Shown piece after piece: positions 19,976 through 42,166 of a stretch of DNA of 64,000 nucleotides (position 1 is its first letter; the number at the start of each line of letters is the position of its first letter). Below the pieces are notes generated by a model. The model did not search any database. It was given only the letters and a program-made list of their open reading frames with translations, and was not told the DNA's origin. A program made the translations under genes and the position numbers. Source of the DNA: Psammoneis japonica (Eukaryota); the NCBI GenBank assembly GCA_008632985.1, contig QPGO01000028.1, positions 62,001-126,000 of the forward strand, in the 5' to 3' direction.

Positions 19976-21199
19976 ATGGCGCAACAGCAGCAAGAACAAA
20001 TCGTAGATTCTGCAGTCTACGAGCTGTCGCCAAAGCACACCATCAGTTTCAGCATCAAAGATTTTGAAAATCTCTCACATGAACGTGGAGAGGACATTGT
20101 CTCGCCGGAACTTTCTTGCCATGGACATTTGTGGACAATCGCAGTGTATCCCCGTGGAAGCCCGCGTTCCAGCGAAAGCACAGTTCACGTCTCTGTCGTT
20201 TTGACACGTGAAAACATGCAGGACAATGAAACTGTGAAAGCAAAATTTTCATTTCGGGTAGGAAACAAGACGCGGTCGACAGAGATCGAGAGAGATTTTG
20301 TCAGTGAGTCGCTTGGGTGGGGGTGGACGGACTTTGTCGAGCGGAGCACTGTACTCGATCCTGCCGAGGGATATCTCGAGAATGGAGTTCTCACTGTCAA
20401 GGCTGACATTCAGATTGTACTTGTCGTCAAGCCTGAGATTTGGCGCCCCAGAGGCACGCTCCAAAAGGACGTCAAGGAGTTGTTTGAATCTATGGATTTC
20501 TCGGATGTTACCTTTTCTGTTGGCGGCCATAGCTTTCAGGCTCACAAGAACATTCTCGCCATGCGTGCTTCAGGACTTGCTGAAACATTCCAGTGTGAAT
20601 CTGGAAAAGACAAGGGTGAGGCCATTGTGATTGATGGATTTGATCCTTCGGTATTTCAGGCTTTTCTGCATCACGCGTACCTTGATGAGCTTCCCGGGGA
20701 TGCCGACACGTGCAAGGATGTCACGGCTCTTCTTGATCTTGCCGACAAGTTTGGTTGCACCAGTCTCAAGCTTTGCGCGGAAGCCAAGCTTGCAGAATCC
20801 TTTGTTTCAGATGACAACGTGATTGACATGATTCTAGATGCAGACAGCAAGAACTGTCCGTTGCTCAAGGAAGCTGCGCTCAAGTTTTTCGTTGACAACA
20901 AGGAGAAACTGATGAGGACCGAGGCTTTCCGCTCTATTGAATCACCCAGATTGCTCCAAGAGTTGATTGCAGCTGACTTTCAGGTTAGGGCCAATGACCA
21001 AGGAGCCAGTGTGGAAAACATGGGCGTTTCTACTCTTCGTAGGAAGCTTGATGAAGCCGGACACGACGTGGACGGCACTCGAGAAACGCTCGTAAAGCGT
21101 CTTAAAACGGCAGCGAATGCCGAGGGCGTGAAGGAATTGTCGGAAGAAAACTCCGACAGTGATGAAGAAAACTCCGACAGTGATGATGGAGATGAATAG
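19976..21199 (+). CDS. MATH-BTB/POZ (SPOP-like) protein, copy A
   Basis: MATH motifs (CHGHLWTIAVYPRG, GWGWTDFV, GVLTVKADI) and BTB motifs (FSDVTFSVGGHSFQAHKNILAMRA, LLDLADKFG), then LRRKLDEAGHDVDGTRETLVKRL and an acidic tail. Confidence 0.9.
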   Translation: MAQQQQEQIVDSAVYELSPKHTISFSIKDFENLSHERGEDIVSPELSCHGHLWTIAVYPRGSPRSSESTVHVSVVLTRENMQDNETVKAKFSFRVGNKTRSTEIERDFVSESLGWGWTDFVERSTVLDPAEGYLENGVLTVKADIQIVLVVKPEIWRPRGTLQKDVKELFESMDFSDVTFSVGGHSFQAHKNILAMRASGLAETFQCESGKDKGEAIVIDGFDPSVFQAFLHHAYLDELPGDADTCKDVTALLDLADKFGCTSLKLCAEAKLAESFVSDDNVIDMILDADSKNCPLLKEAALKFFVDNKEKLMRTEAFRSIESPRLLQELIAADFQVRANDQGASVENMGVSTLRRKLDEAGHDVDGTRETLVKRLKTAANAEGVKELSEENSDSDEENSDSDDGDE

Positions 21200-21414
21200 G
21201 AAGCACGTATGTAAGTCCAACAATTCAAGGGAGGGGTTGGCTATCACCCACATGAATATCTTACGTATGCGATGTATAGATAGACGTGCAATAAGAACAA
21301 ACAGAATAATCCATGTTATTCTAAGAAGGTGTCGCCTTTATTGTAACGATAAACAAGTTCAAAACAAACCGTCGACTTGTGTGGCATTATCATGCATGTA
21401 GATTTATTTACTCT

Positions 21415-22030
21415 CGAATCCATTTGGCAGTAAAGGGGTCTTGTCTTTCAAATACACGTCAAGCGCCCAGGTTTTCCGGGAGTGTGTGAATGTGTTGAAT
21501 AACGCGGAACGACTCGTCATTTTGCAGCTCTCCCCAAATCGTGTGCTGCGGTCCCCACCAAGTAGCCGGCTTTTCGTGCCAGACAAAAAAAATGAAATTA
21601 GAAAGACCCATGGCATAAACTCACTTTCAGACCTGTCAAGAAAGCTGACAAGGTTGCAACTTACGCATTGACAAAAAAGTCGCGACCACCACCACTGCTT
21701 CTGGTTTTCTCTTGTGGCACTCTCCAGAGGTCGCTTCAGCCGCTGCTGCACACAAAATCCAATGCATTCGTGTGTGCATTGAATTGTCTGTTCTCAAATC
21801 AATTTGGGAGCAAAAGGGATCTTTTCTTGTAAATGCTTCAAGCGCCCTGGTTTTGCTGGAAGTGTGTGTGTGTGTGTGCGTTGAACAATGCAAAACAACT
21901 TCTTGTTTTGCAGCTCTCCCCAAACCGTGTGCTGTGGTCCCCATCAAGCAGCCGGCTTTTCGTGCCAGAAAGAAAATTGAGAAGAAGACCTTTGGTGTAA
22001 ACTTGCTTTTTTAGGCTGGTCAAGAAAGCC
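21415..22030 (-). pseudogene. Two tandem remnants of the cyclophilin-like intron and exon 2
   Basis: Reverse-complement matches to 25590-25844 (KPATWWGPQHTIWGELQNDESF) at about 21415-21690 and 21785-22030. Confidence 0.8.
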
Positions 22031-24830
22031 TTGCAAGAGGCACAGATGCAGACATTTTTGATTTCCAAAATGTGGCAGTCATTGTGTTCACAATGTGCCA
22101 TGCATGGTTTTGGCAAACAGAAATGGAGACAAATGGTGGCTGGCAGTTTTGCCATGTCAGTGGCAAGGGAGGCTCAGCAGCATTGGATGCAGTGTGTGCA
22201 GCATGCCTTGTCATGGGGCACTGCAGGAAACAGAGCTGCAACATTCAGAATCCCTTGCACCTGTGCGTCACCTGCATGGGACCTCAATTTCCACTGGCGG
22301 GCACTCCACAACTGGCCAACCACCCCTCAACATGCCAACAAAAATGTGCTGGAGATGACTGATGTCCTCCTCTCCCCAAAAAACTTTGTGACAATCCAGC
22401 TGAAGGGGGCAAGAGGCATGGTTTCTTACAACAGGAAATTGGTCATCCAAAATGGCCAAACTGGAATCAAGCTCCAAACACTGACTCAAAAACATGGTCC
22501 AAAAATGCAGCATGCTGCCATTGATGGGAAAACATTGTCACAAGGAGAACAGCCTGTGGGAGGCCACATTGCACACACTCTGTGGCTCCATCTGGCTGGC
22601 AGCTTGAGTTCAATGCACAACAATGAGGAGCAAGCTCAAAAGATCTGCAGTTTGTCTGTTGATTTGATGTTGCATCATTCTTGTGTGGAGCAAAGCAGTG
22701 GTTGGTAAAATCAAAATGACCTGGCATGATGGCAGCAGTGCAAACCTCCTCCCTCTTCCTCCCTCTCTTCCTTTCTTGTCATCTTTTCATCCATCCTTGT
22801 TGACACCTTTAGCTCAATGCTCTTTTGTCCTCTAGATGTTGATGACAACCAAGGTCAGTTCTCAGATGAAACCACAAGTCAGCCATGCTGGATGATTCAG
22901 CAAGCATGGAAGAAGCTCGTGCACGGTGTGCGTGGTGTGTGCACCATTGAAATGGCAGTTGAGTGAAGTGTGCCAGTTTGCAAATTGCAGCAAAAAGTGG
23001 GCAGAAGAGAAGCAAAGTAAATGACAGAAACTTTGTGATCTTCAGCTCTCACCACAAACTTGCTCACTTCAAGCTGGGCTTGTTGGGCAAGAGGGTTTGT
23101 CCCTCTGTCAGGAGATCTTTGATTTTCTTTCACTCCCTCACAGCTGTGTGTGAGGAAGACCAAGGGTGCCAGCTAGTTGCACAATTTGACAAGCTGATCT
23201 TTTGGCAGCAGCTTGGCAATTGCATCTTCAATCTGATCCTTGGCAGAGATGTGCTCTGTAGTGTGATGGAAATGACACAGATGGAGGTGGGCAAGTGCTT
23301 TGCACCAGGTTGCATGCAATGGCCAGCAGCGATCATGACACACAGCACACAGCCTTTGGCATTGCAGCAATCAATGAAAAGCCCTTGCATTGCAGCTCAT
23401 TTGTGATGTTCACAGCAACGTGTGCCACTCAATGTCACTGCAATGATTGGGGCAAAATTGCAAAAGTGCAGTGTGTTGTTGTCCCATGTCTTGGCATCTT
23501 CAACCTTGTGGGGAGCAGAGTTTGGATTGTTGAAAGTTTTGAAGTGAAAAGAGGAATTGCTTCTGCTTCTTTCACTTGGTTGTTGGTGGTTTTTCATTGT
23601 CCTCATCCTTGGCCTTGGACTTGGTGGCATTTTCTTGCATTTGTGTGACATCCACACAGCCACCACATCCTCCTCCTGCAGGGTGCTGTTGGTTTCCTTG
23701 AAGCTCCTTTCCTTTGCAATGACTCAGTTTGTCAAGTTCTGGGAGTTGGCAATGGTTCTGTCCTCGAAGCATGGCTGGTTTGAGCAGTCGTGGCCCATTG
23801 TGCCCAGGAGGCAGTTGCTGCTGAGCACAACAGTGCACTGCGACAATGTCCTGCAGGTGCTCTGCTTGATGCAACATGTGGTGCTGGGTTGTTGCAAGGG
23901 AAAACAGATGGGTGTGTTTGTCATTGATGGAGGGCATGTGGAAATCACACTGCCAGCATCCAATTCCAGGACATTGTTGAGGGCAGACAGATGAAGTGAT
24001 GGCAAAGATGGCACGTGAAATTTCCGCAGAGTGGGGCCATTTTTGTGTTTGGGCATGTTGGCAAACTGTCAAAACCAGCGCTGCAGAGAGACCCTGCAAA
24101 TGGAGTTCTTGGACCAGCGACAGAGCACTTTCAAACTCTGCTGGGCCAGGTCATTTTTTGTGACTCATGCAATGTGCACAGCTTCAGTCTCTGTCTCAGC
24201 GGTTTGTTGGCAGTTGTCAAAGAGGCCATGCACATTGACAGCACATGTGCTGTGACCATCTTTGTGACATTCCAGCAAGCATCTCTGGCTTTTGCCTCCA
24301 AGGGAGTCATGAGCTGTGGAAAAAGTGGGGCAGCCAATTTTGCCATGCCCAAGCTGCCAAAGTGCACACTCAAGAGACAAGACGAAATGTGTTGTTTGAC
24401 TTGATTGTTGGCCATTTCTTGGAAGCACTGGCAAAAGACAGCTCTTGGAGAATCAATGGTTTGAAAAATGAGAAGATGACTTGAAAAGAATGGACAAAAC
24501 AGCAGCAGGGTCTTCATCAAGACCGTGCCCCCCAGTGCACTGGTGGGGAGCACCAGAGCACTGCGCACGACAGCTGCAGCAACGGTGTGCAGAAAGGTCA
24601 TCCCAATGGTGGTGGGTGACAACAACACATGCACAACTGTGACAATGTCAAAGGAGTGTCTCGTTACAGTGGAGGTGCAGAAAATGTCGTGGGATGGTGT
24701 CTTGTCAGATGAGGGTCCCGATGAGATGCCGTGAGAGAGCCACATGAGCAAGAGTGCGCTGCAATGCTCATTTGGGCTCGAACCTTTTAAATGACAGTGA
24801 AGCAAAGTGCGCTGGTTTGCAGATTGTGGT
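21700..24830. other. TpA-depleted degenerate block 3
   Basis: TA is nearly absent. Minus-strand fragments at about 23400-24500 loosely resemble a retroelement gag-like ORF, but this is not established. Confidence 0.8.
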
Positions 24831-25029
24831 AGAAAGTGAATGGAAGAACTGAAAAGAAGCGAGGAATTTTGTGATCATCTTCAGTTCGCCGCGATCTTAC
24901 GATGCTCGCTTCAACTGGGCGGGCTTCGCTTGTTGGACTTTGGTCCGTCCCTCCATCACGAGATCTTTTTTCTCACAATGACTATCTCGCCTCTCGCCCG
25001 ATCGCTGTCAACAGTCAACAGCAACAACC

Positions 25030-25844
25030 ATGAAGAGACAAGAACGTCCCGATTTGACAAACCCCATGTCAAACAGCAAGTCAAAAGGCAGTAGCAATAA
25101 TGCCTTGACCATGACGATTGCTGTAGTCATGGTTTTGCTAGTTTCAGTCATGTTGGGCATGGCCGTATTGTTGCTCTCGGCAACGCAGCAGCAGCAGCAA
25201 GGCAACAACAACAACAACAACTTGCGAGTATCAACAAAGAGCGAAATTCTTGTACTGGAAACACAATACGGTGATATAAGGATCCGATTGAGACCCGATT
25301 TGTCGTCTGAATCGATTGAATACCTGCACAACTTGATCGGCAAGGGTTGTACGCGATGCGAGTTTTACAGAGCAGAAAAGGAGGGTATTTTTCAGGGTGC
25401 TCTCGCAAACCCCAATGTTCCTAAAGTACAAACCCTTGGCAAGTGTCCCGATGGTGTCGAGTTGCCGAAAATATGCAATATCAAACCAAAGAATCCCATC
25501 TGTGCTTGTCACGGACCAATCATGGTAAACGGTATGGTGGGATGGGCCGGCGGAGGTGGTGGTCCCGACTTTTTTGTCAATACGTAAGTTGCAACCACTT
25601 GTAAGGATTTCTCGATATAGGGTCTGAAAGCGATTATATGCTAAGGGTTTTTGCTTTTCAATTATCTGTTAGGCACGAAAAGCCGGCTACTTGGTGGGGA
25701 CCGCAGCACACGGTTTGGGGAGAGCTGCAAAATGACGAGTCGTTTCGCATCATTCAACACATTTTTACACTCCCGGTAAAACCAGGGCGCTTGACGTATT
25801 TACAAGAAAAGATCCCCTTTACTCCCAAATTGATTCGAGAATAG
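25030..25844 (+). CDS. Cyclophilin-like protein, copy 4 (exons 25030-25583 and 25673-25844)
   Basis: TM segment, poly-Q/N linker, motifs LETQYGDIRIRLRPDLS, FYRAEKEGIFQG and GGGGGPDFFVN. GTAAGT donor and TAG acceptor; exon 2 HEKPATWWGPQHTVWGE. Confidence 0.85.
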
Positions 25845-25934
25845 ATCAATCCATGCACACATCATAATGCGTTGGATTTTGTCTGCAACAGCGGCTGAAG
25901 CGGCCTCTAGAGAGGGTACCGCAAGAAGCATAGC

Positions 25935-26218
25935 GGTCCCGACATTTTTGACAATGCGTAAGTTGCAACCTTGTAAGGCTTTCTCGATAGGTCTGAAAGT
26001 AAGTTTACGGTAAAGATCTCTTGCTTTTCAATTTTCTGTTCCGCACGACAAACCGCTACTTGTTGGTGGGGGCGCAGCACACGGTTTGGGGAGAGCTACA
26101 AAATGATGAGTCGTTCCGCATTATTCAACACATTTATACACTCCCTGTAAAACCATGGCGTTTGACGTGTATTCAAAGGAAAAGATCCCTTTTACTATCA
26201 AATTTGATTCGAGAATAG
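25935..26218 (+). pseudogene. Tandem duplicate of the copy 4 intron and exon 2
   Basis: Repeats about 25561-25844. The acceptor tctgttAG has become tctgttcc and there are small indels. Confidence 0.8.
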
Positions 26219-26717
26219 ATGAATCGACGCATGATAATGCCGCCCAAGTCGAGCGTATGTTTGGAACTTGTTTCTCGTTACAATAAAAGTGACACCTTAT
26301 TAGAATAACAGGTGTTATACTATTCGGTTTATGTCATATCCCTGCTTATTTTTCACGAGCTCTAATTTGCACACGAACCACATGCTGGTTCCTGTGCATT
26401 TACGTACATTTTATACCAGTCGCATCGTAGAGGGGTGTTGTTCGCCGGCCCTGACGAACTCTTTCTCAGACATAAAATACTTTTCACGACGTCCGGCACA
26501 TGACTGCCGGCTCGGTTGACACTGTTTCGAGTGCGTTTTCACGTAGATCCTACTGCAGATGTACGCACTCAGATTTAATTCTGTACAAATCTACGCAGCA
26601 TTTTGCGTAGCAAAAATGCACACGGACCACCAGGTGGTTCGTGTGCATAAGCAGGGATGTGCACGCTGTAAAGCATCCATGCGGATGATGATCAACCCCT
26701 CCCTTGAGTTGTTGGAG

Positions 26718-27932
26718 CTAAAAACGTGCCACCTGTTCATCTCCATCACTGTCGGAGGCTTCTTTTTCCGATTCATCGTCCACGCCCTCGTCATTCGCCA
26801 CCGTCTTGAGATGCTTTGCCAGCGTTTCTCGAGTGCCGTCCACGTCGTGTCCGGCTTCATCAAGCTTCCTACGAAGAGTGGAAACGCCCATGCTTTGCAC
26901 ACTGGCTCCTTGGTCATCGGCCCTGACCTGAAAGTCAGCTGCAAACAACTCTTGAAGCAATCTGGGTGATTTGATGGAGCGGAATGCCTCGGTCCTAATC
27001 AGTTTCTCTTTGTCATCAATGAAATGCTTGAGCGCAACTTCCTTGAGCAATGCACAGTTCTTGCTGTCTGCATGGAGAATCATGTCGATTACATTGTCGT
27101 CAGTGATGGAGGATTCTGCCAGCTTCGCTTCTGCGTGAAGCTTGAAACTAGCGCAACCAAACTTGTCGGCAAGATCAAGAAGAGCCACTCCATCTTTGCC
27201 CATGTCAGCATCCGCGGGAAGCTCATCGAGGTGCACGCAGTGTGGAAAAGACTGAAACAGCGAAGGATCGACTCCATCAATCACAATGGCCTTGCCCTTG
27301 TCTTTTCTAGACTCACACTGGAATGTTTCAGCAAATCCTGGAGCCCGCCTGGCGAGAAGGCCCTTGTGCGCCTGGAAGCTTTGGCTGCCAACAGAAAAGG
27401 TGACATCCGAGAAATCCACAAATTCAAACAACTTCTTGACGTCCTTTTGGAGCGTGCCTCTGGGGCGCCAAATCTCAGGCTGGACAAGTGCAATCTGAAT
27501 GTCGGCCTTGACGGTGAGAACTCCATTCTCGAGACATCCCTCTGCAGGATCGAGCACAGTGCTCCGCTCGACAAAGTCTGCCCACCCCCACGCATTGATT
27601 TCTTCTTTCATCACCGTCGACACCATCTCTCTTCCCACCCGAAATGAGAATTTTGCACAATCAGGTTCGCGATCCTGCATGTTTGCCCGTCTCAAAAACA
27701 TGGAGACATGAACAGTGCTTTTGCTGGATCGCTTGCATCCACGGGGATGCACTTCAATTTGCCACAGACGCCCATGGCAAGAAAGCTCCAGTGAGATGAT
27801 TTTCTCTCCACGTTGCTGCGAGAGATTTTCGAAATCTGGGATGCTGACACTGATGGTGTGCTTTGGAGACAGCACTTCACTGCTCCCCATGACCGCAGAA
27901 GCTACGATGATTCGTTCTCACTGTTGCGCCAT
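26718..27932 (-). pseudogene. MATH-BTB copy B, hypermutated with its frame largely intact
   Basis: The homologous ATG at 27932 is followed by TGA at codon 5. The 390-aa ORF from 27890 contains no Tyr. The paralogues' TAG stop reads CAG here (26735-26733). Confidence 0.8.
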
Positions 27933-28796
27933 GGTGAAACAGTCGTTTTTTATGTGTTGTCGAGCTTTTTATTTTGTGCGATGGGCAGAAGTGCAGATGT
28001 ACAGATGGTGACAATGGAACGCGCGCGCAGTGAAGAGTGAAAGAACTTTCGTCAATCCTTCATCCCTTTTTCGCTGACTCGTCATTCCTCGTCTCCGAAA
28101 AGAGGGCCATGATGCATTGACCCTTCTGCTGTCCATTTTTGTGGACAAAAACACACCATCTGGAAGCAACTGGTGAGCAGCGGCAGTGAGTGGCACTGCA
28201 CAAAAGGAAGAGAGGAGAGCCTGGGAGAGCATCAGTTGGGGGATGTTTTGAGTGTGTGCAGCACATTGAGTGGTGGTCACCAGTTGCAAAAATGGAACAG
28301 AAAAGTCACATTCAACTGGAAGCACTTTTGGGGTGGCCAGCAGCTGTGTTTTTACATGAAACTTGGCCAACCAAACCGCTCATGATTTGTGCTTTTTGAC
28401 CCAGCACCCCCCGTCTGGTGGGGCAACAACCCGACATCGTGCGCGAACTCACGCGCGACATTCTTGCCTGTCATGTCTGAATTTTTTTTAATTTAATTTA
28501 AAATTTTTGACTCGCCATGTCAGAAATCCAACTTCTGATGTAATTTTTCTTGTCATGTGTTGCAAAAAAATTTAAATGTGACATCCATGCTGACAACGTT
28601 GCCGACATTTTCAAGCGCAACACTCGTCCACTTTTCACCGTGCGACAACTTGCCTGCAGACTAGCCCCCAATTCACATTGCTTTCAAACTGTGCTTTAAA
28701 TCCAATGAGCACATGCACAATGTTCCTGACACATCACAGTGCAACACTTGGACACTTTTCACTGTGTGAAAAATTTCTTTCCGGTCAACGCCCGAT

Positions 28797-30032
28797 TCAC
28801 ACTCCACAATGTTGCAGCTGCCAAACTGAGTTGATTTCCTGGTTGACACCTTTGCTGTCATCATTGTCTGCCACATGCTGGCAAATGTTGCTGCCATGCT
28901 GCCTGCATGCTCGTTGCACCCTCGCTCGCTTCTGTGGGTTGTTGTTTGCTCCGCTGTTGACGGTTGCTGCTGCTTCTGTGGTCTCTTCCTCTTTGCTCCC
29001 CTGTTTGTCATTCCTTCCTGTGGCATCCTCCTTCCTGTTGCTCCAATCAGTTTTTGGAGCTGCCCATCCCCTCATGCTGTCCTTCTTTTTCTTCTTTCTT
29101 TTCTTGCCATGTGCGCTCTCCGATTTTTTTGTCTGCAGGTGCTGCACGTCAATTCTGCCATAATCCGCTCTCTTCTTTGCCACCACATCGTAGAGTTTGT
29201 TGCACTTGTGGATCCCATCCTGGTTCCATCCTTGATTTCTTTTTGTGCCTTTCCCCATGAAAGTGCACTTGGGTGCCACGGGCTGGGTCGGCTGCTGCGC
29301 CCCTCCATTTTGTTTGAATTGCTCTTCGATCTCTGCCACCAACATGGCCGCGTTGCAGCAGTTGCCATGCATCAGCCTGGCAAAAGCTTCTGCACTTGTT
29401 GTTGGCCAATCGCTGACACCTTGGCTGTCCACTGTTTTAAAGTGTTCCATTCCTGCCACTGGGGAGCAGCAATTTTCCAAGAACCAGAAGTGTGTTTGAG
29501 GCAATGTCCTGCCCTTTCGATGTCTTCGACGCTTGGCATTCCATCGCATCTGGCCATCTCTGAGCAAGAATCAATGGGTGAGAACATTGCTCCATGTCAT
29601 CCATGCACTGCCTGAGTTGCACTTGCCAACCATCTTCTTTCTAAAGACCTCCAGCCTGTTGTTTCTTCTCCTGTTTGGTCTTTTCCTCACCTTCTCCTTG
29701 TTCTCTTCCCACCAAACTGCACAGTCACTTGCATCCATGTTGAGGTGTTTGCAAACCTTTTTCTGCATTTTGCTCCCAAAAGCCAACTCAATCTCATCAT
29801 GTGTGACAAACTTTGTCTTGGGGCGCACTGTTGTCGCAATGCAGTTGGTTGTCTGGCCATCCATGAACTTGCTCTTCGCTGCCTCCAAGCTGACGACCAA
29901 CATTCCCGCAACCTCCACATTGTGGGATCCTGTCTCTGCCATGTCATGGGTGCTGATTGCAACAAAGGACACATGATCAGCATCAGCAGTCCAACCCATT
30001 TGTGCATCAGAGGAGTTGTTGCCGCAACGCAC
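28797..30032 (-). pseudogene. Decayed transposon accessory ORF, probably part of the Plavaka-like element
   Basis: Two consecutive same-frame ORFs separated by one stop. The motifs TTSAEAFARLMHGN and NQGWNQDGIHKCNKLYDVV resemble TE-associated proteins as I recall them; no search was run. Confidence 0.45.
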
Positions 30033-31524
30033 ATGCCTGATGAATTGTTTTGCACCGACATGTTTGCCCGCTCATTCCCATGTGTTTGTGTCAACACAAA
30101 TTTTCCCTTGGACTGAACCCAGTCTGGAGTGTGCACCTGCCAGCACACCTGTTTGCCCTTCTCAAATGTGCTCCCTCTATTTGAATGTCAAATTTTTCAA
30201 ACTGTCACCATCAGACCTCAATTGATGGATTTTACATTCCTTTTGAATGGACAGTGTTGTCGTTTGCAGCCTTGCATCATCCATCAACTGCACATGGCAC
30301 GATCCATGCTGAGAACAATGCCGCTCCAAGCAGTTGCATGCTGGAATTTTCAAATCACCATTTAATTGTGTTTTTGGTTCACAATTTTGACAGATGAAAG
30401 GGCTGCAGTCCGAACACTTCGTTTTGCATTTTTAGCTGGCCTGCGACATCTTGCTTTGCCGTCTGGGTCCCCATGCTCTTGGCTGTCCTCTGCTTGTCGC
30501 CCGCAATGAACAGAGCATTGTTTGACATCGCTCGCAACTGCTGGCCAGTGCGTTAAAAATTTTCATGTTTTTTGGTTGTCCAGTTCCAGTTAAAACTTTC
30601 CAGGAAATTGGGCTCATCTCTTTGCCCTCACTCATCGTCCAGTCTTGCTCTCACCCTTCTGTCTTCCGCAATGACACCCACTTCTTCTCTCACAGTTTCA
30701 TGCAATTCGTGCAAGCACTCCACAATTTGGTGCAATCCACTGATGTGCCCCTCTCTGGATGCATGCACTCCTGCACAGAATGCCCTCAATCCCAAGAGTG
30801 CTTTCCGGCACAACACCAAGTCTCCACTGGTGGAGGGCAATGTCCCTCGCAAAAGGCCAGGGGACGTCTGCACCAGCATTGTGTTCATTAAGATGAACCA
30901 CGTCCAACACAGTGTCCTCTCTGACAGGCAGCAGAGCACACATGATTTTTGGGAACTGGCACTCCATGTCATTTTTGGCAAGCCACCACGATCATGCAAG
31001 GCTTTTGCATCGAAAGGTTGACTGGCATCTCCACTTCAAAGTCCACCAAATCTAGCGTCAAAGTCACTTTGTCCACGCATGTGTTGCAACAGATTTTGCT
31101 TTCTTGCACCCACCCCTTCAAAATTGATTGCAAGCTGCACCTGCACAACCTGTCACCACCCACATGTCCCACCGTGACACAACAATTGAATGCCCGAGAG
31201 TTGACGCACATTCTGCTTTTGTCCAGTTTTTTTATGCAAACTGAATGTCTGGAATTCTCCCTCAATGTGGTCTCTTTGCAAATGACACAATGGCCTTGCA
31301 ATCCGGTGTCGCCACATCAAAGTGTGTCTGGGATTGCCCAAGTTGCGTCTCTGCATTTCCAATGCATTGTCTTGCTCCAATGTTTCTCACAAAGCATTGA
31401 GCACGTGTGGCCTCAACAGTTTGTTAACAAAATCCATTTTCAATGTCATTCTCCAGCTGAGGCAGGAAAACACACATTCCAGGATGCTCTTTGTCAATGC
31501 AATGCATCCCAGGCTGCCCCCAGC

Positions 31525-31610
31525 GTGTTGTGTTGTTTGCAATTTGAACACAACATTCCAAATCTCTGTGTTGTGTTGTTTGCAATTTGAGCACAACATT
31601 CCAAATCTCT
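31525..31610. repeat. 43-bp tandem repeat, 2 copies
   Basis: gtgttgtgttgtttgcaatttgaRcacaacattccaaatctct occurs twice. Confidence 0.9.
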
Positions 31611-33419
31611 GTTGATGTTGTCTTCTGCTGCACACATTGGGGATCATGATGGGTGCCGAAGCTGTGTGGGGGCAGTTCTCTGCACAGCCACCAATTTCGA
31701 AATTTTGCAGTGGGGCAATGGACTGGGCATTCTCTCTCTGTTAAATTTTTTGCATCCTCAAATGAAATGAATGAGGCAGGTGTTGTGTGTCCCCTTTGTC
31801 ATTTGTTTGTCATGCATTGCTGAAAGAGAATGCAAATTTTTTGTGTGCATCAGAAATGCAGTGGTTTAGAATTCACTTGTTTTTGATGTGGTTCTCCACA
31901 ACATCGCAAAATTGGGTTTGATGTTTTGTGCAATTTCTCACATGCATGACACAACTTTTCACACTGTCACCCAAATGGCACTGACTTTACAGCAGTCCCA
32001 TGTGATGCTCCTCACACTGCAGCGTGGTGGTCACAATGTTGCACAGAAACTCCACAACTGTGATGCTGTGAGTTGTCGCCCGGTTGCACCCTCGCCTTGA
32101 TGCCACATCCATTTGCACCTTCCCGTGTCATTGTTGTGTTCCACTTTTCACACAGCATCTCGTCTGCCTCCCATTCTGATGGGGCTTGATTGCACAAACA
32201 ACAAAATCTCTCGACAACGTGTGCATTTCCAACCCGGTCAGCATGTGAGCAAGAGGACTTTGACACACAAGAAGGTCTCTTCCATTGGATTGTCTCCCAC
32301 ACACATCAACCATTTGTTCTGCACTCTTGAAACGGATGGATTTCTCAACACACTTCCCACTGGCCAAGCTTTGGCAATCTGGCCAAGAGTGCTTCATCAG
32401 CGTGCAATGGTTTGCAACAACAAACACATGTCCTTTGCATTGAGGGAGGTGGCAGAGGAATTGTCAGTGCAGTCAGCCAGACAAAGAGAGGCTGATGCCA
32501 GGAGAAAATCTCTTGCATGGAAAAGAAAGCACCAACATGATGCCAATGTCTGGGAAACCAGCACATCTGCTGCTGACGGGATTGGCAGCGGTTCTGTTGG
32601 TTCCCATGTGGAGGGATTGTTGATCAAATCACAGGAGGAAATGTCAGCAGAGTTTTGCTTGTGCTCAAACCGATTCGGACAGTCAAAGTAGATTCACCCA
32701 TCATTGTTTGGCCCTTCAGCCACTGTTGACCTGCACAAATCCAAAGAACGTGACATTGGCACATTCGTTGAAACAAAACCGGATGACACAAGTGGTTGTG
32801 AAGCACCAGCTTCCATCGCCGCCAACGTGCTCCAACCATCACCAGAAGCAGCAGTTGGAGATGACTGTTGCAAAGAGCCGCTGTTCTCTGACCAAGCGGA
32901 GTTGGACAACCACAGTTTTGGATCATGCAATGACTCAACAGAAACAGTCAAAATCCCCACTGCCAAGAACATCACTGTTGACAACAATGTGTTGGTTGTT
33001 GGCATTGTTTTTGGTGATGAGACCACCAATGCATCTGCCCAGGAACGCAGAGCCACAGCACATTGTCTGGCACCAGTCAAAATCGGCTTCAATGTCCACA
33101 CTGTGGACTGCCGTCAAACAAACTCTTCAACCCAAATCACATGAATGCCAACGCACATGCACTTGGTTGGTCCAAGAACTGGGCCACCAAGGAATGTCTC
33201 TGCAACTCCATGTTGATGGACATTGTGTCTGTGAACAAATCGCACTTCAACGACAGTGTCTTGACGAATTCATTTTTCAGTCAATCCTTGACTCACTTCC
33301 GTCAAAAGCTGTTGGACATTGGCAATGTCTTTCTGCCTGTTGATTTGCAAACAGCCCAGTGTCTTTACAAAAACTGGGCTGTGGTGGGTAAAATTTGGAT
33401 TGTCAGGCACCTGTGCCAA

Positions 33420-36400
33420 GATCAGTTGCAGGAAATGCCTCTTTTCCATCCCACCATCTTGGGCAAGACAACGCCCACTCCTCCACCAACAAGCATGTTT
33501 TTCTGACAATGCCGAAAGGTGTGTTTGGGTGATGTGCCCTCCATTTGCCAATGCTGAAACCAACCGTTCTCGCTCATTTCCCTTTTGATGTTGCTTTGCT
33601 TCTTGCATGTTCTCCCAAAAACAACAACCTCTTTTTTGTCATCACTCAGAAGGAACCCATGCAATTGCATTGGAAACAAGCTGTTGGTTCCACCATCATT
33701 TCTGCATGTGACACGTGCAAAGTCATGCCATTGCCCGGTCTTGTGACAGTTGGGGTGGGCCCAAAATCTCAACTCATGTTCCGCCTGCAGATTTGACTTG
33801 GAATGCACCATGACGTGCCCGTCTGATTCCCCGCTGGTTGCGATGGCACAAAAATTCTACGACGTCCTCCTCCAAATGAGCACTCCATTCCCTTTTCATC
33901 TCCAAGGTTCCGGTGCACTTGCAGCAGGTTTTGTCAACAGGGTCAACTGCAAACACAGCATGCCCCAGGTCATGGTGCAATGTTGTGCTGGGTGGCAAGT
34001 CATCAGTGGCAAGGGGGTGGACAATCAAGTCGTTTGCTCTCTCCAACAGACTTTGCTCATGCAGTTTGGTCGCAAGCTGATGGGTGAACTCTTCTTTGCC
34101 TTGTGAGGCTTGGCAGGTCCGGCTGGGAAGCTTTGCCCATTTCTTTAGAGACCAGACTCGCCTGTTGTGGCATCCCATCCAGAAAATGTGCCCAGTTGAT
34201 GAAGAGCAGTTGTCAAGTGAAGCAAATCATGGAACTTTGATGTTTTCCATCCATGTGTGCCTTTGCCACAATTGATTGTGCTGCGCATCTTGAACATCAA
34301 AAGAACAAGGCAACATTCAATGTCGACGTGATTGGTTTGCAAGCACAGGGAAGAACCACAGCTGCAAAAGGAGTGGAACAACAACAATTTGTTGAGCAAA
34401 AGCAACAGATGATCCACATCGTCACAGTCCACTGAACGACTGGCCAGCTCTGGGTCAAGGCTCTTTAGCCTTTGGCAGAATGCACAAGGCAGTTTTTTTT
34501 CAATTTCTGAGTGGACCAATGGTTGGTCATGAGAAGTTGCCTGTGTGTGCAGTGACTGGCGACGGTCCGCACAGCATCTAAAAATGTTGGAAACAGAGGA
34601 ATTCTTGTCATTGGGGATGCAAAATTGTTGATCCAGGTTGACATTTCTGGTTTGCATCCACACAATGTTGTGGCATGGATGAGCTTGAGATTTTGTCAGC
34701 TGCAAAATGCAAGGACACATGTGACGGTGATGTTGATCCTCCAGAAATTCATTGTGGACAGGGCCATTGTGACTGCATTCTTTGTTTGCTTGGGGTTTGT
34801 CAACCAAGGATGCAGAGGCATGCATTGGATGATCCTCAGCAGATGCTTCCTCTTTGTCAGTCTCTTTGTTGTTGTCTTGTGGATTTGGTTGGTGTTCATT
34901 GCAATTGCTGGCTGAATCGTTGTCATCATCAAGCAAATCTTTGGGATTGTCAGCAACGCGTTTGCCTTCTTTGTGTGCACGACCATCATTGTCTTCTTCT
35001 TCATAATCACAGTCCTCTTGTGGAGGCTGGTCATCAAAATTTGAGGCTTGTTTTTTCTTTGTCTTGTCAAAATCTGGATGGCAACGAAGAAGGAGCATGC
35101 TCCGTCCCTCCGCAGTCTGACCCACCAGCGTTGTTGCAAACAGCTTCCCCATCTTTTGGTCACAGCTCAAACCGGACAAGGTGCAAAAGCCATTTTGTGC
35201 AAGACAACCGGTGGAAACATTGTTCTCTGACCGGGTCTGCACCACTGAGATCCAAATGTGCAGTTTGCCAAATTGTTCAAATGGCCTTTGGCAGAGTCGG
35301 GCAAATCATCGACAATGACAGAGAGCGTCTGAGGGGCTGTGCCGCCTTGGAACATGTGCATTGGATCGGGGGACGCAAACCCAAACATGCCCTGACGATT
35401 GTCTCCCATCCAAAGAGGAATCATTGAGTTGTCAACCGTGTGTTGGCCAAACACCTCACGAAGTTTGGAGGAACAAATGTTCATGTGCCGGACAACTGCA
35501 CTACGACGCGTTCCAGCCCTAGGTGGGAGCTCGTAGTACTGACGTGTGACAACAATAATTTTTATCATCCGTCGTATGTTTCGTACGTAGATTTCTACGT
35601 GTGATATATAAAAAAAATTGTCCAGACTCGCTGTTTTGCGAAGCCCCAGACGTTTTATATAACAAATTTATAGAAACAACAATGCGCCAGTTACATTCTT
35701 CAATGTCTGAAGAATGTAACTGGCTAAGTAAAAAATGATGTACTTCAATCATGTGCGAGTTTGTGCGTTCGCAAAATTGCCTCATTTTCTGTTGGCGATC
35801 ATTGACCTTTTAATTACCGTATAATTTTACTACGGAGCTCGCACGTAGAAGTCTACGGGCCCAATGTCACACGGATTCCCACCTACGTCTGGAACGCGTC
35901 CTACGTCCCTTGGAACGGATTGATTCAGCCACAGCCTTGGGCATCACTGCGGCTGTTTGTGATTCAACGAACAGATGCCACGGACTGTCAATTGAACCGG
36001 GTGGTGGTCCAAGAGCTGCAGCAGTCAAATGCTCCATCACTTCCCGAGAAAAATGCCTGCAGCAGTGCAACAGCTCATCACTGCATGTCCAGGAGGTGTG
36101 ACAGGCATGACTGATGCGGCAGGAATTTTTGCGGCCAGAAAGACGGCCGGTCACTTGTGCGGCATTAACAGCATCACCCAACTTTGTTGCGCTGTGAACA
36201 ACAATGCGCTTAAAACAATGCTGGTTGCCAAGTCAGATGCAGCAGATGGGAGGCAATTCTTGCACTTGAGTTGCAGGTGCAAGAAGGACAGACAAAATGC
36301 GGTGATGGTTTCTGACATTCAACCCAAAAACGGGGGTTCTTTGTTTTGTAACCCTTGCATTTTGGAACAAATCCAAGAGGATGCCATGCTTCAAAATGAT

Positions 36401-37280
36401 GAAGTGCAGATGCTTTGATGAGAGTCACAGAGAAAATGAATGGCTCCATCAAATGAGGTGCGACCTGTCCTTTCCCGGTTTTGTTGGTGCAGTGCAAAAC
36501 TAAAACATGAAAGGATCCAGGGACGATGGGAACATCATTGCCACAAAAACAGTCACTGCAAGTTTCTCCATCCTCCATTTTGGCATCATCACAAAGTTTC
36601 CAGTTGCCGTTCTTGTCCAACATGGGTTCACTGGAGAGCACCTGAGACCAACATGATTGGGAGGAATGTCAAGATTTGAAAGATTGGCAAAAAGGGGATT
36701 GTCGAACAGGTCCTGCAGTTGGAGGGAAAAGTTGTAAACAGGGATGCCGGGAGAGAGCTCCTGCGGCAGGTTGTTCTTGAATTGGTTGACAATGGAAACA
36801 GACTCAAGGGGAACTCGTTGCAGCACCGGGGCCACAATGCTGGGCAACATTGACTTGAGCTTGGACATGAAAGTTCAAGAAGAGGGCATTTGTTGGGTGA
36901 CAGACAACCCACCACTGGAGAATTCCTCCTGCACAGCTCTCATCAACTCATCTGTCACACTGATTGGGACACCCTTGGAGCAACACAAATTCAACATGTG
37001 GACCGTGGATGTTGTTTCACAGTTGCAAACTTTGGGCACCACAAGGTCCTTGTCCACAGAGAGGTGTCCAACTTGATTGAGTGTGGCAAAAGAGCCAGAA
37101 TCAGCAACTGTGGTGGCAGAACCCTCGGTGTTGGAAACAAATTCTTTGTGGTCAGGAAACTGGCACTCTGAAACATCATTGGCATGGGGAAGAAGGGAAT
37201 TGTCATGGGAGCCATGCAGCTCTGGTGCAGATGAGATGCACGGTTGGAACGCAACGGCTGGGGATTGTGTCTTGTGCAAC
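33420..37280 (-). mobile_element. Decayed Plavaka-like (CACTA/Mirage-related) transposase
   Basis: Ordered motifs FNFSLQLQDLFDNP-like, MGDAVNAAQVTGR, SHACH, PDPMHMFQGG, WKTSKFHDLLHL and GWDATTGESGL follow the Plavaka pattern. Many frameshifts; element ends not found. Confidence 0.65.
35505..35900. mobile_element. 396-bp MITE with ~24-bp TIRs and CTAC target-site duplication
   Basis: The left end GACGCGTTCCAGcccTAGGTGGGA matches the reverse complement of the right end, GACGCGTTCCAGacgTAGGTGGGA. CTAC lies at 35501-35504 and 35901-35904. Removing the element restores the transposase frame (SKGR|SAVVRH). Confidence 0.9.
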
Positions 37281-38214
37281 CTTGTGGAGTTGGCGCGGCA
37301 TTGGCATTGGGCCCTGTGGCAAGAAATTCAAATGGAGGAGAGCCAAGGGTAGAAGAGGCAGCAACGTCCACTTGTTCATCAGATTGTTGCCCCACCAGAT
37401 GCCCCCTCCCCACCCAAGAACTTAAAAAAAGCACACTTGACACAAAAACAACACCATCAAATCCACAGCACCCAAATTGGCACACATGCTTGTTTGTGTG
37501 TTGTGCAAATCCATTTCAGTGACCTCATGCATTTGCTTTCTGTGGCGCACAATGACACACCCACCAAATCCTGTGAACAGAGCCACATTTGCTCCATGTT
37601 GCTGGTCAGTGCTCTGCTTGTGCACAGCTTCTGCAAACTTGAAAGAAATTGTCCAACCAAAAACAACCTCACATCTTTTGGGCAATGGTGGCTCATGATG
37701 CTCTCTTGCACAACAATCCACGAGCAATGGCACATTGTGCCATGATTGGGGGAGGGGAGTCATGCCGTGGACAGAGCTCCAAACATTGGCAAACAGATTT
37801 GGAATCAGCTTGTGAGGCTCATTCCAAGTTCATGCTTGCAAAAATGGCTGCCCTTTTACCTGACATCTGTGTGTCAACTTGCCAACTGTGGCAGATGCTC
37901 TCTCCACAGCTGGCCAATGACCCACCAAATCATGTGCCAGCAACAGAAGTGTGCCACTGTCTGAGTTGTTGTCTGAATTGATGAAGGTTTTAGAGATGTG
38001 CAACTGCTGCCCCCCAAGAGGCTTTGTGACAATCAAGTGTCAAAGGGACAAGCAGCAGGGCTCCTCACAGCAGCATCAAAACAACAAAGCACAATGAATG
38101 GCAGCATTGAAAACCTCCTCCCCTCTTGCCCACTCCCTTTCTCTTCATCTGTCCTTTCATCTGTTTTTGGCACCTTTTGGCTCAATGTTCTTTTCTTGTC
38201 TCCTCTTTGTGGTG

Positions 38215-38640
38215 GAAGTCATGCAAAAGAGGATTGAGTTCTGCACGTGCAAATGATGAGCAGAAAACCAGGGTTTGTCAACTCAGAAGATGCACTTGTT
38301 GTCAGTGGGAGGAAACCTGTGCAAGCAGCACCAGCTCCTGTGGTGCCGCTGGTTTTGGACATGCTGATTTCTGCTCTGTGAGAAACCTCCAACCTGCACA
38401 TGACCTTGCACGACCCAAAGCTGACAGCCTGAAATGTGCAATGATCACCATCAAGTGGGAGAGTGAAGGAATGAAGTCATGCAAAAGAGCGTTGAGTTCC
38501 ACATGCTCAAATGATGAGCAGAAAACCAGGTTCATCAACTCAGAAGATGCGCTGGTTGTCACTGGGAGGAAAGCCATGCAAGAAGTGCCATCTCCCATGG
38601 CACCACTGGCTTTGGACATGCTGACCTTTGCTCTGAGTGC
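38215..38640. repeat. Diverged tandem duplication (~257-bp period)
   Basis: gaagtcatgcaaaagag...aaatgatgagcagaaaaccagg...tcaactcagaagatgc...ttggacatgctga starts at about 38216 and again at about 38473. Confidence 0.8.
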
Positions 38641-38742
38641 TTGTCTGTTGCTTTGACATCAAGGCTTTCTTTTGGGAGTGAAGCAGCTGTTGGAAAAAGT
38701 CAAAACAACAACAAACCACAAAGGCAACAGTGCAAACCTGCT

Positions 38743-38754
38743 CCCCCCCCCCCC

Positions 38755-38797
<43 letters not shown>
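38743..38797. repeat. Poly-C plus (CT)n microsatellite
   Basis: Seen directly in the sequence. Confidence 0.95.
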
Positions 38798-38801
<4 letters not shown>

Positions 38802-40419
38802 TTCCCTTTCATCTTTTTTGGTGCCTTTGGCTCCGGGTCAACACTCATTTGTCCTCTGGTGGTGGATGAGAAAGACTGAAGTCAGTTCTCAGATGAAGCC
38901 TTGTGCTGGTCAGACTGACCAAAGATTTGGCAAGCATAAGAAAAGGAAGTTTTTGTTGCTGTCTGTGGCATTGAAAGGCCACAGGCAATGTGATGGTGGA
39001 TTTGAGGCAGGGTGCCTGCTTTCCCCCGAAGCATGTTTTTGCCATGAGAGCAAGCCACACAAGCCAACTGAAAAAGGCACATTTCTGGCCTCATCATTGA
39101 CTTTTCATCACATGTGGGTGATGATGCATTTAGAAAAATAAAAAATTGAAAAAAGATCTTTCAGCTGAAAACCCCAGGTTGGTGTGCTTTGGCAAATTTG
39201 CAACTGAGCAGCCAGCAGAGAAGGTGGGTGCACAATCAGGTGCAGCAGGCCATGAGAAAGTGTGTTTTTTTTCAAAATCAAACATGTCCCCTGTTGATCA
39301 AGTCAAAAGGAGCAGCCATTGTGTCCACTGCCCTCAGATCTTTGTGCTGTGCTGCAAGAAGGTTTTTCAGCCATGGCATGGCATGCATGATGTGTGCCAT
39401 TGAAATGACAGCAAAGGAAAGTGCACCAGTTTGCAGATCATGGTAAAAAGTGAATCTTAAGAGAAAAGCAAGGTTGTGGACAGGAACATCATGATCTTCA
39501 GTTCACCGCCATTGCGCTCTTGCATCAAGTTGGGATCGGGGCTTGTTGGACTTGGAGCATCCATCCCTTCAACAGAAGATCTTTGAACAATTTCAGCTTT
39601 CATCATCTTGCCTGATTGCTGTCCTCACTGCATGTGGCACAGGTGCGCTGGACCCCGCGGTGGAACCCCATGTGAAAATGCTGTGAGCAACAGGCTCACA
39701 ACCCATTGTCTGTGACTCATCCACAACCTCTGCTTGAATCAAGAGTGTCAGAAGCAATGACTGGCACTCTCACTTCTCAAAGAGAGCTGCAGATGCAACA
39801 GCAGACAGCATGAAATCACTGTTCTGTTGCTTGGACACCAAGGAATTTGTTGCAATGTCTGCAACTGTTGCAGAGAACACAACAAATGTGGATGTGAGTG
39901 ATCCACAAACACCCACTCAACAAGCAGCAGCTCAACTGGGAGCAACCTCAGGTCAAGGGGGAGGAGCACTGCCACCGCCACCGCCAGCATGTCCTGTGCC
40001 ACCGCCTCCAAATCAACCTGCGCAACAACCCAGAGAAGGTCAGCCACTGGCAGCACAAGTGCCGCTTGTTCAACTGCCTTCACCAAATCCCACCACGCAT
40101 CAAGAACACCATGGAACAGCAAACAAGGTCCTGCACAATGGTGACTGCACCAAAGCGGGTCTGGATTTTGCCGCAGCCATCACAGGAGCCTCAAGATGTG
40201 CCCCTCCACCACTCACAGAATGAGTCACAGCTGCTTCAGGACACAATGTGCCCGTGGCACAAGCAAAACTTGCAACCACTCATTCCATCGAATTGCTGCT
40301 TGCCCGGGAACCATCATCGGGAATGCATCACCTTGGTGCGGCAATGCGTGTGCCATCCATGGTGACATCACATGAGGACAATGCCATGTTGCACATTGGG
40401 AGGTTGCCAATCATCATCT

Positions 40420-40760
40420 CGAGGTGGCCGGAACCTGGGTTTTTGCGGACGCAGAGAGATGGAAAATCATTTAGCGCAAGACCCCGAAGGCCTTGTCAAC
40501 CATGTGCCACCCAACGACGCGGGAGCCGCAGAGGTGCGAACACGCATCACTGCTTTGCTCCCCCCCATTAGGCAGGAAAAGCCGGCTACTTGGTGGGGGG
40601 CACATCACACGGTTTGGGGAGAGCTGCAAAATGATGAGTCGTTCCGCATTATTCAACATGCATGTTTTATACGTGTCGGAAAACCAGGGCGCTAGACGTT
40701 CTTCTTCTATTTACAAGAAAAGATCCCTTTTACTGTACTCCCAAATTGATTCGAGAATAG
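40420..40760 (+). pseudogene. Cyclophilin-like exon 2 remnant
   Basis: QEKPATWWGAHHTVWGELQNDESFRIIQH, followed by a stop and indels. No intact exon 1. Confidence 0.8.
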
Positions 40761-40969
40761 ATAAATCTACATGCGTGATAAGCGGCCACACAAGTCGAGC
40801 GCCTGTTTTGAACTTGTTTGTGGTACAATAAAGGAACACCTTATTAGAATAACAGGTGTTATACTTTTTGGATTATTGCACGTGTCTACCTACGTCATAT
40901 GCACGCTGTAAAGCATTCATACGGATGATCAACCCCTCCCTTGAGTTGTTGGAACTAAATACGTGCTTC

Positions 40970-42166
40970 CTATTCGTCACCTTCACTGTCGGAGCTTTCT
41001 TCCGACCCATCGTTCATGCCCTCGGCATTCGTTACCGTCTTGAGACGCTTAACAAGCGTTTCTCGAGTGCCGTCCACGTCGTGTCCGGCTTCGTCGAGCT
41101 TCATACGAAGAGTGGAAACGCCCATGCTTTCCACATTAGCTCCTTCTTGGTCAAATTCTCTGAGCTGAACCTCAGCTGTAATTAGCTCTTGGAGCAATCT
41201 GGGTGATTCAATGGAGCGGAATGCATTGCTCCTCGTCACTTTTTCTTTGTTGTCAATGAAATGTTTGAGCGCTACTTCCTTGAGCAACGCACAGTTCTTG
41301 CTGTCTGCAATGAGAATCATGTCGATGACGTTGTCGTCTGCAATGAAGGATTCTGCCAGCTTTGCTTCTGCATGAAGCTTGAGACTAGTGCAACCAAACT
41401 TGTCAGCGACATCAAGAAGAGCCATTCCATCTTTGCCCATGTCAGCATCCGCGGGAAGCTCATCGAGGTACACGTAATGCAGAAAAGACTGAAACACCGA
41501 AGGATCGAACTCATCAATCACAATGGCCTCACCTTTGTCTTTTGTAGACTCACACTGAAAGATTTCTGCAAATCCTGGAGCCCGCATGGCGAGAATGTTC
41601 TTGTGAGCCTGAAAGCTGTGGCCACCAACAGAAAAGGTAACATCCGAGAAATCCATAGATTCAAACAACTTCTTGACGTCCTTTTGGAACGTGCCTCTGG
41701 GGCACCAAAGCTTGGGCTGGACAAGTGCAATCTGAATGTCGGCCTTGACGGTAAGAACTCCATTCTCGGGATGTCCCTCAGCAGGATCGAGCACATTGCT
41801 CCGCTCGGCAAAGTCGCTATACCCCCAACAATTGAACTCTTCCTTCATCACCGTCGACACCGTCTTTCTTCCCACCCGAAATGAGAATTTTGCGTCAACT
41901 GGTTTGCGATCCTGCATGTTCACCCGTCTCAAAAAGATGGAGACATGAACAGTGCTTTCGTTGGATTGCGTGTCTCCACGGGGATACACTTCAATTTCCC
42001 ACAAATGCCCATGGCAAGAAAGCTCCGGCGAGATGATTCTATCTCCGCGTTGCTGCGAGAGATTTTCAAAATCTGGGATGCTGACACTGATGGTGTGCTT
42101 TGGAGACCACACCTTTTTACTCCCAATGACTGCAGAAGCTACGATTCGTTCCTGTTGTTGCGCCAT
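40970..42166 (-). CDS. MATH-BTB/POZ protein, copy C
   Basis: Intact ORF from ATG 42166 (MAQQQERIVAS), with the same domains as copy A. Confidence 0.88.
   Translation of the reverse strand: MAQQQERIVASAVIGSKKVWSPKHTISVSIPDFENLSQQRGDRIISPELSCHGHLWEIEVYPRGDTQSNESTVHVSIFLRRVNMQDRKPVDAKFSFRVGRKTVSTVMKEEFNCWGYSDFAERSNVLDPAEGHPENGVLTVKADIQIALVQPKLWCPRGTFQKDVKKLFESMDFSDVTFSVGGHSFQAHKNILAMRAPGFAEIFQCESTKDKGEAIVIDEFDPSVFQSFLHYVYLDELPADADMGKDGMALLDVADKFGCTSLKLHAEAKLAESFIADDNVIDMILIADSKNCALLKEVALKHFIDNKEKVTRSNAFRSIESPRLLQELITAEVQLREFDQEGANVESMGVSTLRMKLDEAGHDVDGTRETLVKRLKTVTNAEGMNDGSEESSDSEGDE

Follow-up and report, generated by a model that had tools for sequence, protein, structure and literature searches.

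Loss of TpA in the MATH-BTB gene copies of Psammoneis japonica: altered tyrosine codons, an erased stop codon and a possible local mutator

Why do the MATH-BTB gene copies in a 64,000-nucleotide stretch of Psammoneis japonica DNA (NCBI GenBank assembly GCA_008632985.1, contig QPGO01000028.1, positions 62,001 to 126,000 of the forward strand; hereafter the window) carry His or Cys at sites where another copy carries Tyr, and why has the stop codon of one of them disappeared? Three copies with open frames (A, B and C) and a dead fourth copy (D) are present, and the codons concerned differ by TA in one copy and CA or TG in another. The explanation that we favour, with some reserve, is that a local mutator of TpA produced these differences, that the four copies form an exposure series and that the changes in copy B are collateral damage. 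The alignments display the pattern site by site, together with its polarity and its specificity for TA.

All of the motifs named in the original prediction were found in the copies, namely AEGYL/AEGCL/AEGHP and HHAY/HCVH/HYVY in A/B/C, VYPRG and VHPRG, and KLCAE and KLHAE, with KHVC in copy D. TAY is the only family of sense codons that begins with TA, and the mark that the loss of TpA leaves on a protein is therefore Tyr to His (T>C) or Tyr to Cys (A>G). The codons at each of the sites are listed in Table 1; across the four copies, all four pyrimidine–purine steps are present at the AEG-x codon. Copy B, as had been noted earlier, does not contain a single Tyr in its 390 residues, and A and C contain four each (1.0%). 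The TAG stop codon of the family is kept in A and C and has become CAG in B, from where the frame runs on through GTG GCA CGT TTT to a further TAG and thereby gains the extension QVARF, also as predicted. In copy D the same stop codon is TGG, so that it has been erased twice, once on each strand. Together with the occurrence of both His and Cys as products of the same TA, the two stop-codon products bear out the proposal that either strand of one TA can be struck. Among A, B and C, the three states TA, CA and TG are all seen at three of the 39 positions with TA, the corresponding numbers of three-state positions for the other 15 dinucleotides being 0–3 of 66–148. The events in B divide into five TA>CA and four TA>TG, with no strand bias. 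A change of TpA to CpA or TpG turns no sense codon into a stop codon; TAA and TAG are removed, or TAA becomes TGA. Copies rewritten in this way therefore stay open, and the erasure of TAA and TAG leads one to expect long frames in rewritten DNA, such as that of 712 codons at 53103–55241.

The direction of the changes was read from an alignment with six outgroup proteins, which are homologues of the copies. At the V-x-L site all six have Tyr, as does human SPOP, and at the H-x-V site five have Tyr and one has Phe. At the AEG-x site three have Tyr, two have Phe and one has Met, and at the VYPRG site, which is covered by five of the outgroups, two have Tyr, one has Phe and two have Cys. As the outgroups carry Tyr or another aromatic residue, the replacements in the copies (His or Cys in B and D, His in A and C) are read as derived, and the alignment supports Tyr, or at least an aromatic residue, as the probable older state at the four sites. 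The original prediction had looked to Cys or His in the outgroups as the sign that its reading was wrong; such residues are found in part at the VYPRG site (the two Cys) and at none of the other three sites. The homologues with Cys at the VYPRG site are P0003 and P0005, and P0004 and P0002 have Tyr; the same Tyr-to-Cys step may have taken place in these relatives. The ancestral KLYAE that had been deduced from the KLCAE and KLHAE motifs, in contrast, was not supported by the comparison, as the outgroups have Val or Glu at the KL-x-AE site and D has CAA. A Tyr ancestor at this site, which was rejected, requires four steps on the tree compared with three for an ancestor with CA first, and the TGC of A can be reached via CGC (Arg) equally well as via TAC.

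The pairwise nucleotide identities (87.2% for B–C, 84.0% for A–B and 83.8% for A–C) place B and C as sisters and A as the outlier. When the commonest state among A, B and C was taken as ancestral in each of 1250 ungapped columns, A:T>G:C changes on the B branch were found at nine of 32 positions in TA context and at 24 of the 582 remaining A/T positions, an odds ratio of 9.1 (p=1.4e-5). On the C branch, the corresponding values are 1/32 and 14/582 (odds ratio 1.3, not significant), and for A they are 4/32 and 24/582 (p=0.051), the A branch being inseparable from the B+C stem. The branches of B and C are of equal length, with 72 changes each, and the contrast between nine TA-type losses in B and one in C (Fisher p=0.017) is therefore a fair internal control. 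The synonymous sites of B display the excess of TA-context changes by which the original prediction was to be judged (2/7, compared with 7/158 elsewhere; p=0.048). At the non-synonymous sites of B the proportions are 6/15 in TA context and 10/362 elsewhere (p=8e-6); non-synonymous TA changes are thus as frequent as synonymous changes, which indicates that selection did not filter them.

Of the 39 positions with TA in any of A, B and C, 23 are kept by A, 24 by C and eight by B, with CA or TG in B at 24 of the 39. A private TA, with the other two copies agreeing on CA or on TG, occurs at nine positions in A, at six in C and at none in B. With D added to the alignment, 20 of 40 positions can be assigned an ancestral TA, and the inferred losses amount to 16 on the branch of D, ten on that of B, at least four on the B+C stem, at least four on that of A (to CA) and one on that of C. 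The single event on the branch of C is a TA>CA change, the Tyr-to-His replacement at the AEG-x site. These counts hint that even the intact copies were partly struck, as had been supposed, although they support this part of the original prediction less firmly than the changes in B. The TA odds of A, B and C (Table 1) compare with values of 0.43–0.56 in 12 of the 13 other open reading frames (ORFs).

Table 1. Gene copies, diagnostic codons and neighbouring features in the window (positions are those of the window)
Feature	Position	Strand	Description
Copy A	19976..21199	+	Intact MATH-BTB(-BACK-SAP) gene, 407 aa, TAG stop; TA odds 0.25, CG odds 0.93
Copy B	26718..27890	-	Open frame of 390 aa, 0 Tyr; TA odds 0.09, CG odds 0.76
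Copy C	40970..42166	-	Intact gene, 398 aa, TAG stop; TA odds 0.27, CG odds 0.87
Copy D	~9510..10691	-	Dead copy inside an old rewritten block, frame broken
VYPRG site			Codons A/B/C: TAT/CAT/TAT
AEG-x site			Codons A/B/C/D: TAT/TGT/CAT/CGC
H-x-V site			Codons A/B/C/D: CAC/TGC/TAC/CAT
V-x-L site			Codons A/B/C/D: TAC/CAC/TAC/TGT
KL-x-AE site			Codons A/B/C/D: TGC/CAC/CAT/CAA
CAG of B at the family stop position	26733..26735	-	Frame continues to the next TAG at 26718-26720
Ancestral start region of B	27891..27932	-	ATG that B has in common with A and C; in-frame TGA at codon 5
Block abutting the 5' end of B	27951..35200		TA odds 0.02-0.12, CG odds 0.29-0.60
3' flank of B	25627..26324		Duplicated, 78.7% identical to the flank of A over 722 bp; TA normal (10-15 per 200 bp)
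3' flank of A, second repeat unit	21700..22040		TA/CG differences from the flank of B

Copy D lies outside the interval considered in the original prediction. It was located by tblastn with A, B and C at ~9567..10691 on the minus strand, and blastn homology reaches 9510. Within the 1321 aligned nucleotides (9440–10760) it has two TA and 11 CG. None of the 15 shared TA and only four of the 59 shared CG are retained, compared with 34–56% of the other 14 dinucleotides, and D has CA or TG at 26 of the 46 positions at which A, B or C has TA. Its nonsense codon is a CGA>TGA change. In B TA is disappearing while CG is still present, whereas in D TA is almost gone and CG is much reduced, so that B represents an early state and D the end state. 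The two copies together suggest an order of events in which TpA is lost first with CpG intact, and CpG is lost afterwards.

The DNA around the copies shows the same depletion over much larger distances. One-kilobase odds ratios delimit rewritten blocks at 7–12, 15–17, 22–25, 28–35, 36–40, 43–47 and 49–55 kb, in which the TA odds are 0.00–0.12, the CG odds are 0.07–0.60 and the CA/TG odds are ~1.5–2.2, with G+C unchanged at ~0.48. The TA odds do not exceed 0.15 in about 36 of the 64 one-kilobase bins, which is over half of the window. The TA-poor stretch that includes B runs from ~26.65 kb through the gene into the 28–35 kb block, and the homology between B and C extends over 26657–27950 (86% over 1297 bp). 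In the ORFs of the block that abuts B, Pfam recognized no family, and of 17 ORFs taken elsewhere in the window, most of them in rewritten blocks, only one has a family (RVT_1, 52354–52908). Parts of the same block are at raised depth in the DNA run X1, in which B and C are at ~50–90, a depth that is not to be read as a copy number. The contigs of X1 cover B and C with few differences, and one of the 21 differences listed, at 30364, is in TA context; these contigs give no sign of ongoing TA polymorphism. The run may be the sample from which the window was assembled.

The explanation that we favour may be put as follows. A local DNA mutator would convert TpA to CpA or TpG by an A:T-to-G:C transition on either strand, and would have rewritten over half of the window, with a slower loss of CpG in the same blocks. 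The gene copies would then constitute a dose series. Copy D, in an old block, would have been fully rewritten and killed; copy B, at the edge of a younger block (26.65–35 kb), would have lost about two-thirds of its TA and kept its CpG; A and the B+C stem would have received few events and the own branch of C one. The chemistry may be deamination of adenine in TpA context, as has been proposed for Bigelowiella natans, and the target would be chosen by region or chromatin and not by duplication.

Several observations weigh against this explanation. Only nine of the 72 B-specific changes are of the TA type, so that most of the divergence of B is ordinary, and the relaxation of constraint in B is not significant (non-synonymous to synonymous changes 37:17 compared with 35:27, p=0.25). 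The other 20 of the 40 TA positions cannot be polarized, since D has lost all of its TA, and only outgroup DNA would separate A-specific changes from those on the B+C stem. The Cys residues of two outgroups at the VYPRG site count on the same side. Measured against the ORF baseline, the TA counts are low not only in B (six compared with 34 expected, p=3e-9) but also in A (20 compared with 39, p=6e-4) and in C (21 compared with 39, p=1e-3), and the shortage in A and C may partly reflect a trait of the family. Along the coding part of B the TA count increases from 0 to 4 per 200 bp, yet retained and lost TA show no positional gradient within it (Mann–Whitney p=0.59; Fisher test on halves p=0.38), and spread from the adjoining block is therefore not demonstrated. 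Finally, the 5' end of C likewise abuts a rewritten block, yet C is nearly untouched.

The assignment of the copies to the MATH-BTB family rests on both the MATH and the BTB domain. PF22486 (MATH_2) scores 72.5, 48.2 and 57.2 bits in A, B and C (Pfam cut-off 32), and PF00651 (BTB), which follows the MATH domain, scores 58.3, 44.5 and 69.5 bits (cut-off 20.5). The BACK domain PF24570 reaches 25.5 bits in A, which is below the cut-off of 27.4, and is unreported for B and C; it is precomputed in the homologues P0001 and P0002. Similarly, the Pfam match to SAP in A is below threshold, and SAP (PF02037) is precomputed in P0001 and P0003–P0006. The nearest homologues in a large protein collection have identities of 44%, 37% and ~27–31%. 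The closest solved protein is human SPOP (E=4.4e-20 over residues 32–319 of C), which aligns across both MATH and BTB. In SPOP and the plant BPM-type MATH-BTB Cul3 adaptors MATH precedes BTB, as in the copies described here, and BACK follows, as may also be so in the copies. The copies differ from these adaptors in that their C-terminus has a SAP-like motif and an acidic tail, which P0001 and P0003–P0006 have as well; a role of the copies as Cul3 adaptors is putative. Open frames of 207 codons run antisense to B (27024–27647, +) and to C (41261–41884, +) and are conserved between the two, most likely as a by-product of the composition of the sense frame and not as genes. Rfam reported no family at gathering score in 19800–42400. 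Directly upstream of A lies an assembly gap of 209 N (19605–19813), which makes its 5' flank and its distance to any rewritten block unreadable.

Repeat-induced point mutation (RIP) changes C to T at CpA (G to A at TpG), makes TpA, lowers G+C and creates stop codons. The process considered here is opposite in direction, since TpA is erased, G+C is kept at ~0.48 and no stop codon can be created. In other respects the two are alike: in RIP, too, as far as the accessible part of the literature on it describes, dinucleotide-specific transitions saturate repeats within sharp limits and spill onto adjacent genes or gene duplicates. In ascomycetes, RIP `leakage' into single-copy genes beside repeats has been described (Van de Wouw et al. 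2010, PMC2973834), and the position of B beside the 28–35 kb block resembles such leakage as presented in the accessible part of that article. One may ask whether targeting here is triggered by homology, the paralogues being struck because they are duplicated. The TA-poor part of B does begin near the 3'-side end of its homology with C, and B and D both belong to a four-copy family. We nevertheless regard homology-triggered targeting as unlikely. C pairs with B at 86% and is as duplicated as B, yet it shows one event compared with the 9–10 of B. The gene pair at 13618–14442 and 17419–17973, with an identity of 86.8% over 554 bp and of 85.8% over 971 bp when the flanks are included, has normal TA odds of 0.43 and 0.51, and the 3' flank of B has normal TA although it is duplicated, while part of the flank of A is struck; the differences of this part from the unmutated flank of B mark the start of the next rewritten block (22–25 kb). 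A very high-depth element at ~35.5–35.96 kb is unmutated, and on the 5' side of B the depletion of TA extends past the homology into the 28–35 kb block. Duplication as the reason for the changes, which the original prediction had implied, thus receives no support from the duplicated sequences of the window.

Ordinary divergence is the next alternative. Copy B would be relaxed or dying, and its Tyr-to-His and Tyr-to-Cys replacements and the loss of its stop codon would be normal transitions that happened to fall on TA. This would suit the 63 of 72 B-specific changes that are not of the TA type, the TGA at codon 5 and the higher pN/pS (ratio of non-synonymous to synonymous change) of B, and a family that is poor in Tyr anyway, with only four in each of A and C. 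The TA-context odds ratio of 9.1 in B, however, is absent in its equally long sister C (1.3); B lacks the private TA facing CA or TG that A and C possess; and the same signature is present at full strength in the adjoining DNA and in D. Ordinary divergence is therefore improbable as a sufficient account.

More improbable still is adaptive diversification, which the original prediction had raised for Cul3 substrate adaptors. According to this proposal, the organism would exploit, or at least put up with, a mutator that makes no stop codons as a way of producing variant adaptors, and copy B, free of Tyr, would be one that functions. MATH-BTB families do expand and diversify in some lineages, B has kept an open frame of 390 codons, changes of TpA to CpA or TpG yield no stop codon from a sense codon, and the pN/pS of B (0.61) is still less than 1. 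However, a mutator that removes stop codons and makes none would leave a frame open without selection, so that the open frame of B is no evidence of function. The aromatic residues that are replaced in B are conserved in the outgroups, their counterparts in SPOP being Leu, Phe and Tyr, and the struck sites are presumably not among the residues of the substrate-binding groove of SPOP. The changes are not concentrated in the MATH domain (two in MATH, one in the MATH–BTB linker, two in BTB, one in SAP and one at the stop codon). B also shows signs of decay: the ancestral start context is lost, with TGA in frame at codon 5 and the listed ORF of B restarting at an ATG where C has ATT; the family stop codon is gone; the Pfam scores of B are the lowest of the three copies for both domains; and the pN/pS values of C and A are 0.36 and 0.34. 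No positive selection was found, and together with the position of the changes and the signs of decay this leaves the diversification of Cul3 adaptors unsupported. The changes in B most likely represent collateral damage, sustained by a copy whose constraint is relaxed.

Gene conversion, by which the CA and TG states of B would have been copied from a rewritten paralogue, is the least probable alternative: clustered paralogues often convert one another and further copies may exist elsewhere in the genome, but the changes in B are scattered among retained TA and do not form one patch. Conversion from D in particular was rejected, as D shares the product seen in B at none of the five sites at which TA is kept by both A and C and lost in B (columns 196, 562, 580, 752 and 1294).

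A local TpA mutator of the kind that we favour has a close counterpart. The A-to-I deaminases ADAT2/TadA and ADAR prefer a 5' U or T. Enzymes of this kind would change A to G where a T precedes it; that they work on the genomic DNA of this organism is purely conjectural. In the chlorarachniophyte B. natans, local hypermutation of integrated viral DNA that is restricted to TpA and changes T/A to C/G has been described (Mettrop et al., bioRxiv 10.64898/2026.01.13.699255, 2026 preprint); no other parallel in print was found. According to the accessible part of this preprint, the changes were measured de novo in mutation-accumulation lines, in giant-virus and virophage inserts; the authors propose a DNA adenine deaminase and name an A-to-I deaminase as the candidate chemistry, and some TpA-depleted coding sequences contain Pfam families of likely host origin (bioRxiv 10.64898/2026.01.13.699255). 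As far as that part of the preprint allows comparison, the two cases are alike in that the changes are almost exclusively T/A>C/G transitions, are confined to TpA, are local and leave a sequence that is poor in TpA and rich in CpA and TpG. They differ in that the process is deduced here from a comparison of paralogues in another eukaryote, appears to reach copies of host genes with frames still open, and is accompanied by loss of CpG in the older blocks. The targeting of foreign DNA reported for B. natans also has no match here, because the gene of which B and D are copies is of host type, although B adjoins a repeat-like rewritten block. The accessible text of the preprint nowhere uses the words `diatom', `paralog' and `host gene' (bioRxiv 10.64898/2026.01.13.699255). 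A limited literature search returned no description of TpA erasure in diatoms, which is not proof of its absence.

Other features of the window were noted in passing. A repeated unit of ~250–370 bases is present at 21412–21645, 21792–22029, 25561–25857, 25935–26231 and 40568–40876, with short matches at 13428–13495, 17223–17291 and 1966–2000. It sits downstream of the MATH-BTB genes and near small paralogous genes, and it has a well conserved core and a depth of 600–1089 in X1; its TA is normal beside B, and one of the copies on the side of A is rewritten. The small paralogous genes number four, at 2100–2741 (-), 13618–14442 (-), 17419–17973 (-) and 25030–25587 (+), and their proteins end in GPDFF(I/V)(N/T)T. 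Their TA odds are normal (0.43–0.56), even for the two that share 86.8% identity and lie next to a rewritten block, and Pfam recognized no family in the one that was tested, at 25030. The island at ~35500–35960 is TA-rich and CG-normal inside a rewritten block, has inverted-repeat-like ends, is unmutated and stands at a depth of ~38,000–39,000 in X1 compared with ~60 nearby; it is probably a very abundant small element that was inserted after the rewriting. The 712-codon frame at 53103–55241 (+), inside a rewritten block, is rich in His, Cys and Gln and has no Pfam family. An open frame of 520 codons at 56534–58096 (+), with TA odds of 0.11, 0.4% Tyr and no Pfam family, adjoins a frame of 582 codons at 58153–59901 (+), with TA odds of 0.44, no Pfam family and a high-scoring lead, though no more than a lead, to DUF6589 clusters; the two may be a transposon-related gene pair, one member of which is partly rewritten yet open. 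For the subtilisin-family gene at 3683–5101 (+), the best relatives (at most 57% identity) are metagenome proteins or bear bacterial names, which hints at a bacterial ancestry in a eukaryotic context.

In conclusion, the MATH-BTB paralogues of this window provide a polarized record of an unusual mutational process on protein-coding host DNA, with C as the control. With Tyr changed to His or Cys, stop codons removed and none created, this process would explain the many long open frames in the rewritten DNA, and such frames could mislead gene callers. The pair B and C offers a defined locus at which to ask whether targeting follows chromatin and position or duplication. Since the process is already in print for another alga, to judge from the accessible part of the preprint, the present case adds detail and not a new principle. 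A wider proposal is that the mutator strikes not only transposons but also copies of host genes and yields full-length, Tyr-depleted and C-terminally extended proteins that are possibly expressed, with B as a live example; we consider this improbable as regards a source of protein variation, but if it were true, a stop-free mutator would be such a source in families such as the Cul3 adaptors. Judged from its sequence, the locus is a clear, internally controlled instance of what appears to be a rare kind of mutational process in copies of host genes.

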